The translations under genes were made by a program, and so were the position numbers. From a virus (taxonomy: Duplodnaviria > Heunggongvirae > Uroviricota > Caudoviricetes), in the IMG/VR virus record IMGVR_UViG_2695420624_000003, positions 1 through 27,032 of that record: 27,032 bases of DNA; one strand, written 5' to 3'. The notes under the pieces were generated by a model. That model searched no databases. It had not been told where the DNA came from and was given only the letters and a program-made list of their open reading frames with translations. Shown here in pieces: positions 21,486-23,843 of the stretch. The first letter of the stretch is position 1, and every line of letters starts with the position of its first letter.

Positions 21486-22310
21486 ATGTCTCAGAACTTA
21501 GACGCAACCGCAATTAATCAAATCCATGCCCTTATTTCTGCTCAGGGTGTTAATGAAATTATCAGTAAGATTGGTGCCGATGCTGTGGCATTGCCTGAGA
21601 ATTTCCGCATTCATGATCTGGAAAAATTTAATTTAAATCGCTTCCGTTTCCGTGGTGCGCTTTCCACTGCCAGCATCGATGACTTTACCCGTTATTCTAA
21701 AGATCTTGCAGATGAAGGCACCCGCTGCTTTATCGATGCCGATAATATGCGTGCCGTCAGTGTGCTTAACCTGGGTACTATTGATGAGCCAGGTCACGCA
21801 GATAACACTGCCACTCTCAAACTGAAAAAGACAGCACCGTTCTCTGCTCTGTTGTCTGTTAACGGCGAGCGTAACTCCCAGAAGTCACTGGCAGAATGGA
21901 TCGAAGACTGGGCCGACTACCTTGTGGGCTTTGATGCTAATGGTGATGCCATTCAGGCAACAAAAGCGGCTGCGGCAATCCGTAAAATCACGATTGAAGC
22001 AAACCAGACCGCTGATTTTGAAGATAATGACTTCAGCGGCAAACGCTCCCTGATGGAATCTGTCGAAGCGAAGACCAAAGACATTATGCCAGTGGCATTT
22101 GAATTTAAATGCGTTCCGTTTGAAGGTCTGAAAGAACGTCCGTTTAAATTACGCCTCAGCATTATCACTGGCGATCGTCCTGTACTGGTTCTGCGCATTA
22201 TTCAGCTGGAAGCGGTGCAGGAAGATATGGCTAACGAATTTCGTGATCTGCTTGTTGAGAAATTCAAAGACAGCAAAGTAGAAACCTTTATTGGTACTTT
22301 CACCGCCTGA
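21486..22310 (+). CDS. YfdQ-like prophage protein (274 aa)
   Basis: Size and position immediately upstream of an HD phosphohydrolase match the yfdQ-yfdR pairing in other E. coli prophages (from memory). Confidence 0.5.
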
Positions 22311-22437
22311 TTTCATTACTGCAAATGCCCCTGCGGGGGCATTTATGGAAACGTAATTAACTCAATAATCACCGGATGGTGAGGGCTTCCTTTTACCCAA
22401 ACTCAGCGCGGTGCAGCGCATATACGTGGAGAACAAA

Positions 22438-22974
22438 ATGTCATTTATTAAAACTTTTTCCGGGAAGCATTTTTATTATGACAAGATAAATAAAGACGAC
22501 ATCGTGATTAACGATATCGCGGTTTCCCTTTCAAATATCTGCCGCTTTGCCGGTCATCTTTCTCACTTCTACAGTGTCGCCCAACATGCGGTGCTTTGCA
22601 GCCAGCTGGTGCCACAGGAATTTGCTTTTGAAGCGTTAATGCATGATGCAACAGAAGCGTATTGCCAGGACATCCCCGCACCACTGAAACGCCTTCTTCC
22701 TGACTATAAACGGATGGAAGAAAAAATAGATGCAGTAATCCGTGAGAAATACGGGTTACCTCCTGTTATGAGTACGCCAGTGAAATATGCCGATCTCATT
22801 ATGCTGGCAACCGAACGCCGTGATCTCGGGCTTGATGATGGCTCTTTATGGCCTGTACTGGAAGGTATCCCGGCAACAGAGATGTTCAAAGTTATTCCAC
22901 TGGCACCGGGCCATGCCTACGGGATGTTTATGGAACGCTTCAACGAGTTATCGGAATTACGCAAATGTGCATAA
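22438..22974 (+). CDS. HD-domain phosphohydrolase (YfdR-like 5'-deoxynucleotidase)
   Basis: HD motif region HFYSVAQHAVLCSQ ... ALMHDATEAYCQDIP; start taken at the internal Met (MSFIKTF). Confidence 0.65.
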   Translation: MSFIKTFSGKHFYYDKINKDDIVINDIAVSLSNICRFAGHLSHFYSVAQHAVLCSQLVPQEFAFEALMHDATEAYCQDIPAPLKRLLPDYKRMEEKIDAVIREKYGLPPVMSTPVKYADLIMLATERRDLGLDDGSLWPVLEGIPATEMFKVIPLAPGHAYGMFMERFNELSELRKCA

Positions 22975-23843
22975 CTCATGTAGTTAGTTTTTCTGGCGGG
23001 AGAACATCCGCATATCTTGTTCACCTGATGGAAGAACAAAGAAAGGCTGGCAATAACGTCTGCTACATCTTTATGGATACCGGTTGCGAACATCCGCTGA
23101 CATACCGCTTTATCCGGGAGGTTGTGAAGTTCTGGGACATACCACTAACTGTGTTACAGGTCGATATAAATCCTGAGCTTGGGCAGCCAAATGGTTATAC
23201 AGAATGGGAGCCAAAGGATATTCAGACACGAATGCCGGTGCTTAAACCGTTTATGGACATGGTTAAAAAGTACGGCACGCCATACATCGGCGGCGCGTTC
23301 TGTACTGACAGGCTAAAACTCATCCCTTTCACGAAATACTGCGATAACCATTTCGGGCGAGGTAATTACATCACATGGCTGGGTATTCGTGCAGACGAAC
23401 CCCGTAGGCTGAAACCGAAATCGGGCGTCCGGTATCTTGCCGAGCTGTCAGATTTTGATAAGTCGGATGTTATCCGGTGGTGGCGAAAACAACCTTTTGA
23501 TTTGCAAATCCCGGAGCATCTCGGGAACTGTGTTTTCTGCATCAAAAAGTCAACGCAAAAGCTGAGGCTTGCATGTAAAGACGAACCAGGTCTGATGCGA
23601 GTTTTTAATGAGCTGGTTACAGGCAAACACGTCAGGGATGGTCATCGCAGAACAGGTAAAGACATTATGTACCGTGGTCACCTGACGCTTGACGGAATTG
23701 CCAGAATGTCTGCCAACAGCGACTACAGAAATTTGTATCAGGCGATGGTACAGGCCAGGCGATTCGATACCGGCTCGTGTTCAGAGTCATGTGAAATCTG
23801 GGGTGATCAATTGGAATTGGAATTCGAAGAGGTAGGGGTATGA
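22965..23843 (+). CDS. PAPS-reductase-like PP-loop ATP pyrophosphatase family protein
   Basis: PP-loop VVSFSGGRTSAYL near the N-terminus and a C-terminal Cys cluster (CSESCEIWGD); start overlaps the upstream stop. Confidence 0.7.
   Translation: MCITHVVSFSGGRTSAYLVHLMEEQRKAGNNVCYIFMDTGCEHPLTYRFIREVVKFWDIPLTVLQVDINPELGQPNGYTEWEPKDIQTRMPVLKPFMDMVKKYGTPYIGGAFCTDRLKLIPFTKYCDNHFGRGNYITWLGIRADEPRRLKPKSGVRYLAELSDFDKSDVIRWWRKQPFDLQIPEHLGNCVFCIKKSTQKLRLACKDEPGLMRVFNELVTGKHVRDGHRRTGKDIMYRGHLTLDGIARMSANSDYRNLYQAMVQARRFDTGSCSESCEIWGDQLELEFEEVGV

Follow-up and report, generated by a model that had tools for sequence, protein, structure and literature searches.

The yfdQ-yfdR-ninC cluster

The window, that is, the whole stretch of DNA analysed here (27,032 nucleotides (nt); positions 1 to 27,032 of the Caudoviricetes record IMGVR_UViG_2695420624_000003 in IMG/VR), is the right-hand portion of a Shigella SfV/SfIV-type lambdoid prophage, which is inserted at thrW beside proA. 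Three genes for a YfdQ-like protein, an HD hydrolase and a PP-loop enzyme lie in it between the repressor and xis/int, and the initial annotation had described them as a coupled trio that could jointly modify nucleotides or DNA. The three open reading frames (ORFs) are intact and on the + strand, and their folds were correctly recognised: the first two proteins are the YfdQ (100% identical) and YfdR (98%) of Escherichia coli K-12, and the third is a homologue of NinC of phage lambda. The cluster belongs to the leftward early operon, with the repressor on one side and xis/int on the other. The genes and their arrangement are already known and annotated, and the three enzymes do not act as successive steps in a single pathway. 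The window probably displays ordinary lambdoid mosaicism, in which the variable slot between yfdR and yfdT of a yfdP-yfdQ-yfdR-slot-yfdT module at thrW is filled by a ninC-type gene, and the cluster then comprises two independent functional units.

The yfdQ gene (21486..22310, + strand) encodes 274 residues, identical to those of K-12 YfdQ at 274 of 274 positions, and its product matches the DUF2303 family of Pfam (PF10065; E 4e-93) with 311.9 bits (cutoff 26.6), over profile positions 2-269 of 269. No functional study emerged when the literature was searched for DUF2303. For the HD gene, the longest ORF is 22411..22974, and the start that matches K-12 yfdR is the ATG at 22438, with a GGAG 7 nt upstream. 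The yfdR gene so defined (22438..22974, + strand) encodes a protein of 178 residues, 175 of them identical to K-12 YfdR, with the HD dyad at residues 69-70 and a match to phrog_318 (E 3e-109). Since its score against the YfbR-like model of Pfam (24.2) falls under the cutoff (25.9), its assignment as an HD-domain 5'-deoxynucleotidase and DnaA-binding protein is carried by orthology to K-12 YfdR. The PP-loop gene, assigned to the 'PAPS reductase family' (PAPS, 3'-phosphoadenosine 5'-phosphosulfate), had been taken to begin at 22848, as in the mechanically delimited ORF (22848..23843), the first 39 codons of which overlap yfdR. It in fact begins with the ATG at 22965, which is also the RefSeq start in enterotoxigenic E. 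coli (ETEC) H10407; the corrected gene (22965..23843, + strand) encodes 292 residues, and near-identical database proteins are equal in length.

The genes downstream of yfdQ are tightly packed: yfdR overlaps the PP-loop gene by 10 nt, the PP-loop gene overlaps a yfdT-like gene by 4 nt (ATGA), and the latter overlaps xis by 1 nt. Coupling thus holds for yfdR and the PP-loop gene but not for yfdQ and yfdR, which are separated by a spacer of 127 nt. This spacer holds a 9-bp GC-rich hairpin (22323..22344, + strand; centroid of the RNA fold), followed by AUUUAU. The hairpin is part of a stretch that is 98.6% identical to K-12 and was not flagged in the terminator scan; it could be a weak or leaky terminator or a processing site, separating yfdQ from the tightly overlapped genes that run from yfdR to int. 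A promoter scan of the + strand upstream of the cluster, by consensus match only, returned no match, which fits read-through from the early-left promoter.

Exchange of a cassette next to yfdR

The cryptic K-12 prophage CPS-53 (KpLE1) carries the genes yfdP-yfdQ-yfdR-yfdS-yfdT-torI(xis), and the same yfdP-Q-R-S-T order adjoins xis/int in SfIV and SfV (orf29-34). Gene order and orientation in the window are like those of CPS-53, whereas the attachment sites differ (thrW in the window, argW for CPS-53). The module is opened by a yfdP homologue (21058..21420, + strand; 120 residues; ATG start checked), the product of which is 98% identical to K-12 YfdP (113/115 residues) and belongs to phrog_204, a PHROG without a function label. 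At the DNA level, K-12 and SfIV are 97-98.6% identical to the window over 20658/21039..22972 and again from 23975 on. In blastn comparisons, the homology to both ends at 22972, in the stop codon of yfdR, and restarts at 23975, while the homology to the Shiga toxin 2a (Stx2a)-type phage Ss-VASD is limited to 22963..23852. The breakpoints therefore indicate that a cassette of about 1 kb (22973..23974, + strand), made up of the ninC-type gene and the first 45 codons of the gene downstream, replaced yfdS (DUF551) and the 5' third of yfdT. The resulting yfdT-like gene (23840..24184, + strand; 114 residues; phrog_660, which has no function label) is a chimera with a new N-terminus, and the C-terminal 81 residues of its product are 81% identical to K-12 YfdT.

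A database protein of 294 residues (P0021) combines DUF551, the YfdS domain, with PAPS_reduct and shares 86% identity with the NinC-type protein of the window, over 88% of the latter. Going by its sequence, it is an apparent recombinant across the yfdS/ninC slot and suggests that this slot may be a recombination hotspot.

The arrangement seen in the window recurs in 282 of 5,426 complete E. coli genomes (~5%) and is annotated in RefSeq, for example in ETEC H10407. Among 80 IMG/VR contigs with a 92-100% identical PP-loop gene, about 62 have YfdR as the neighbour upstream, usually with translational coupling, and DUF2303 lies upstream in about 65; in 11 of the 80, an unrelated 147-residue protein without a Pfam domain stands in place of YfdR. 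The PP-loop gene of Stx2a phages is preceded by a DUF2303 gene and then by an unrelated gene for 147 residues, which replaces the HD gene. Farther away, neither DUF2303 nor YfdR is present within 4 kb in any of 112 distinct loci with a NinC protein 47-80% identical to that of the window (0/112). E. coli relatives at 54% identity reside in textbook nin regions, and marine relatives in other contexts. The pair yfdQ-yfdR, for its part, exists in K-12, SfV, SfIV and phage Kati with no PP-loop gene. Because the distant loci are devoid of the co-occurrence and yfdQ-yfdR exist without the PP-loop gene, we attribute the association to linkage: yfdQ, yfdR and the ninC-type gene are not a conserved unit, and their association is limited to one young lineage.

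These observations undercut the joint role initially proposed for the trio, namely a three-step pathway in which YfdQ, the HD hydrolase and the PP-loop enzyme would together make a modified nucleotide or modify phage DNA. Such a pathway would accord with the single operon, with the 10-nt overlap and with the persistence of the arrangement in the close viral contigs (~62/80) and the 282 E. coli genomes. Yet the PP-loop gene is a cassette exchanged for yfdS, it does not co-occur with DUF2303 or YfdR at 47-80% identity, its copies in Stx phages have the 147-residue gene as their upstream neighbour, and yfdQ/yfdR do without it in K-12, SfV, SfIV and phage Kati; moreover, a DnaA-directed activity has already been described for YfdQ/YfdR. 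A shared pathway is therefore very improbable, and the case shows how, in mosaic lambdoid prophages, genes that adjoin in an operon may be misread as a pathway.

In K-12, initiation at oriC is inhibited when yfdQ and yfdR are present in multicopy together with either yfdS or yfdT (Noguchi and Katayama, PMC4776307). YfdR was found to bind domain I of DnaA, to be a structural homologue of the 5'-deoxynucleotidase YfbR with a much lower affinity for nucleotides, and to act as a weak HD phosphatase on deoxynucleoside 5'-monophosphates (dNMPs) (PMC4776307). Of this initiation-inhibiting set, the window has yfdQ and yfdR; yfdS is absent and the YfdT-like protein keeps the C-terminal 81 residues only.

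The ninC-type gene and its product

Phage lambda NinC (NP_040635; 290 residues) is 79% identical to the 292-residue protein of the window (225/285 residues), and the two are alike in length, in the PP-loop and in all six invariant cysteines. The PP-loop of the window protein, SGGRTS, occupies residues 10-15, and the cysteines, namely C113, C126, C189xxC192 and C272xxxC276, are invariant in 29-31 relatives down to 52% identity, while C41 is not conserved. The loop and the C-terminal Cys cluster, both of which had been pointed out in the initial annotation, are thus real and conserved, the latter as the invariant C272xxxC276. Further invariant residues in the family alignment are S8, S10, G11, G12, R13 and S15. 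The family is large, with 5,034 database clusters at E <= 1e-5. The window protein matches the PAPS_reduct model of Pfam (E 2e-8) and PHROG 424, labelled 'PAPS reductase'. Its AlphaFold2 (AF2) model has a predicted local distance difference test (pLDDT) score of 85.6 and a predicted TM-score (pTM) of 0.84, with residues 266-292 disordered, and in Foldseek searches with this model the TM-scores normalised to the query are 0.28-0.39. In Ss-VASD (locus L004, 4001..4879), the deposited coding sequence of the NinC-type protein starts at an internal Met at 4064, which would cut off the PP-loop; the deposited start is probably mis-annotated, and the homologous ATG at ~4001 gives a full-length protein.

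The lambda and window genes differ in their location. Lambda ninC lies in the nin region of the rightward operon, between ninB and ninD, whereas its counterpart in the window belongs to the leftward early operon, where it is flanked by yfdR and xis. Residence in the nin region is a positional trait and does not define the NinC protein family. The nin-equivalent region of the prophage itself (13618..17944, - strand) encodes PerC-like, LexA-DNA-binding-domain, RusA, KilA-N, DUF968/HNH and Q proteins, and a search of the window for a second ninC, for ninB and for Dam (DNA adenine methylase) found none. Since its own nin region is without ninB, ninC and Dam, the relocated gene is the sole NinC-type gene of this prophage. 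In lambda, ninC was non-essential in a CRISPR interference study.

Relationship to PP-loop proteins of defence systems

The window protein shares with DndC, SspD and BrxP the adenine-nucleotide alpha-hydrolase core, an SGGxxS loop and conserved cysteines. When scored against PADLOC, it matches SspD (E 1e-14), BrxP (3e-4) and DndC (5e-3, with no DndC stretch passing alone). The match to SspD covers residues 5-150 only, that is, profile positions 2-123 of 277, and so falls short of full length. Unlike DndC and SspD, the PP-loop gene of the window is phage-borne and stands alone: no DndA/D/E or SspA/B/C partners were seen among the scanned ORFs of the window, and it is surrounded by yfdR, the yfdT-like gene and xis. 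We therefore reject membership of the protein in the DndC or SspD families, as the similarity is confined to the N-terminal domain and partner genes are missing. DndC itself has an SGGKDS loop and acts as a [4Fe-4S]-dependent ATP pyrophosphatase (PMC6435447). The SGGRTS loop and the conserved cysteines of the NinC-type protein would be compatible with a [4Fe-4S] cluster and with ATP pyrophosphatase activity.

NinC genes are repeatedly associated with Dam. A Dam gene occurs within 100 nt of the NinC gene in 29 of the 112 distinct loci, a fraction that is inflated because the scan seeded with P0076 included patterns taken from the Dam portion of that protein. In 16 of the 29, Dam is fused in frame at the C-terminus of NinC, in 11 it is directly upstream, and in two it is a separate gene downstream. 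The association is also present in loci seeded with P0102, for which no Dam pattern was used (L096-L148), and in phage Oslo. Examples of adjacency or fusion can be found among the IMG/VR loci L096-L234, in L006 (2477..3873) and in L007 (4001..5440).

The only NinC relative with a genetic phenotype is p0018 of the Vibrio phages 44E38.1 and 44E38.2, which is annotated as 'Dam methyltransferase with PAPS reductase domain'. Over its N-terminal ~280 residues it shares 55% identity and the invariant motifs with the window protein; p0018 continues into a C-terminal Dam domain, whereas the NinC-type protein of the window stops behind the Cys tail and stands alone. When p0018 and p0019 (DUF6475) were moved into a Dnd-sensitive sister phage, the latter reached 10^11 plaque-forming units per ml on a Dnd+ host (Piel et al. 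2022; bioRxiv 10.1101/2021.05.05.442762). A 2026 paper cites this escape from Dnd in the same sense and lists phage PAPS reductases among candidate anti-defence genes. Our search of the literature on anti-Dnd proteins retrieved only JSS1_004, an unrelated kinase similar to T7 gp0.7. The link that had been drawn between PP-loop enzymes of this type and DNA modification or anti-defence is thus supported by the SspD match, the Dam loci and the Dnd-escape cassette. As for the proposed comparison with PP-loop proteins from known modification and defence systems, it yields the match to the N-terminal half of SspD and the 55% identity to p0018, but no full-length match to DndC or SspD.

Proposed functions and alternatives

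We propose that homologous or illegitimate recombination put the ninC-type PP-loop gene into the variable slot, where it would have displaced yfdS. In the first of the two units, YfdQ and YfdR, with the YfdT-like protein, would most likely damp initiation on the host chromosome or adjust the dNMP pool early after induction. The second unit, the NinC-type protein, would be a PP-loop enzyme of the ATP-pyrophosphatase type rather than a true PAPS reductase, which binds ATP at the SGGRTS loop and adenylates a substrate. A Cys/[Fe-S] centre (C113, C189xxC192) and the flexible C-terminal CxxxC tail would then most likely transfer sulfur or another group, a layout that recalls adenosine 5'-phosphosulfate (APS) reductase and the three-Cys [4Fe-4S] sulfurtransferases. 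On account of the SspD/DndC homology, the recurrent fusion or adjacency to Dam and the one genetic experiment in a Vibrio phage, its target could be phage DNA or the phosphorothioation machinery of the host, such that incoming or induced phage DNA would be protected from Dnd/Ssp-type restriction. We favour such a DNA-directed counter-defence role tentatively, as possible rather than probable. More doubtful is the specific version in which the stand-alone protein is itself a counter-defence enzyme that either installs a phosphorothioate-like or other mark, with host IscS as the sulfur donor, or subverts the Dnd/Ssp complex, and in which relocation to the pL operon, coupled to yfdR, brought about its earlier expression. 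If true, it would give lambda NinC a function.

Several points weigh against these proposals. A literature search on NinC returned no biochemistry for any NinC protein, lambda itself can dispense with ninC, and we only infer an Fe-S cluster in the NinC-type protein; the C-terminal Cys tail (residues 266-292) has a pLDDT below 50. The transfer between the Vibrio phages involved two genes, one of which, p0018, joins its PAPS domain to a methylase (bioRxiv 10.1101/2021.05.05.442762), so that the escape need not stem from the PP-loop domain alone, while the window, when searched, was found to contain no Dam gene. With regard to the first unit, the effect of YfdQRST is restricted to multicopy plasmids, and deletion of the genes is without phenotype (PMC4776307); in addition, the YfdT-like protein of the window is chimeric, and its N-terminus differs from that of K-12 YfdT. 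Lastly, the association of the ninC-type gene with yfdQ/yfdR in close relatives could reflect a lineage-specific functional link and, equally, recent common descent.

Of the other roles that may be considered for the PP-loop gene, that of an auxiliary metabolic PAPS/APS reductase, which boosts sulfate assimilation by the host, is suggested by its Pfam and PHROG names and by its closest solved structures, which are CysH and APS reductase (PDB identifiers 6vpu, 1sur and 2goy; query-normalised Foldseek TM-scores of 0.34-0.38). We reject an identity with true CysH: with the NCBIfam equivalog PRK02090, the protein reaches 20.5 bits of the 154 required, over residues 5-81 only. The alignment with CysH is confined to the N-terminal ~100-160 residues (approximately the first 100 in a profile search of PDB sequences), and in this alignment NinC keeps the GG of the canonical SGGxxS ATP-pyrophosphatase loop, which is absent from CysH. 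The C-terminus of the window protein reads GSCSESCE, unlike the ECGLH motif at the C-terminus of CysH, and in other phages the family is fused to DNA methylases; a metabolic role is hence hardly credible. Modification of RNA rather than DNA, by tRNA thiolation or lysidine-like chemistry that reprograms translation, would be another conceivable use of the fold, although the protein lacks THUMP or any other RNA-binding domain, the repeated partner is a DNA adenine methylase, the best match in the defence library is SspD, and the sole genetic evidence concerns the DNA-based Dnd restriction; we deem it unlikely. A partnership with the recombination genes of the nin region (NinB/Orf, NinG/Rap) in DNA repair or recombination, with passive carriage of the gene into the early-left operon, is suggested by ninB, which is directly upstream of the NinC gene in 40 of the 112 loci, its canonical position in lambda. 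Against it, the prophage of the window keeps an intact and conserved ninC-type gene in spite of having no ninB, relatives in Vibrio, Oceanimonas and Moritella also do without ninB, and synteny in the nin region is a matter of lambdoid genome architecture and not necessarily of function. This partnership is distinctly unlikely.

The window itself is of little import, as its genes are named and are identical or nearly identical to those of K-12 and ETEC H10407. The remaining question concerns the family as a whole, namely the role of lambda NinC. Given the canonical PP-loop and six invariant cysteines, the SspD-like N-terminal half and the repeated fusion or adjacency to Dam, a DNA-directed anti-restriction role is a testable hypothesis for this family, and the published Vibrio phage experiment points in that direction too.

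Prophage setting and other features of the window

In a megablast search of phage records, SfIV, SfV and SfII are 97-98% identical across 78% of the query, in two pieces. Upstream of the cluster, a cI-like S24/helix-turn-helix (HTH) repressor is encoded at 19191..19883 (+ strand), and a cro-like gene diverges from it. Downstream, the xis gene (24184..24534, + strand; 116 residues from the ATG at 24184) encodes an HTH_17 excisionase (Pfam E 3e-8), the SfIV homologue of which is annotated as excisionase. It is followed by the gene for a tyrosine integrase (24411..25574, + strand; Pfam Phage_integrase E 3e-48), which abuts thrW, the tRNA-Thr(CGU) gene that serves as the attachment site (25589..25664, - strand; ARAGORN); proA (25779..27032, - strand) lies beyond it. 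The layout of the integrase-thrW-proA junction is identical in the annotation of ETEC H10407.

Two further segments stand out by their low GC content. A two-gene moron (12000..13022 and 13030..13614, both + strand; GC 0.31-0.33) is located between the Q antiterminator gene (13618..13983, - strand) and the lysis genes, on the opposite strand. In PADLOC, its genes match PDC-M53A (E 2e-32) and PDC-M53B (E 3e-54), which make up a candidate defence pair; they give no Pfam match at curated thresholds and fall in PHROGs without a function label. A DNA invertase gene (3278..3868, - strand; phrog_125, E 3e-98) adjoins a low-GC (0.36) ORF of 432 residues (1647..2945, - strand), for which no Pfam, PHROG or PADLOC match was found. 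Together, the invertase and this ORF might form an invertible segment for tail fibres or host range, or else represent a further moron.

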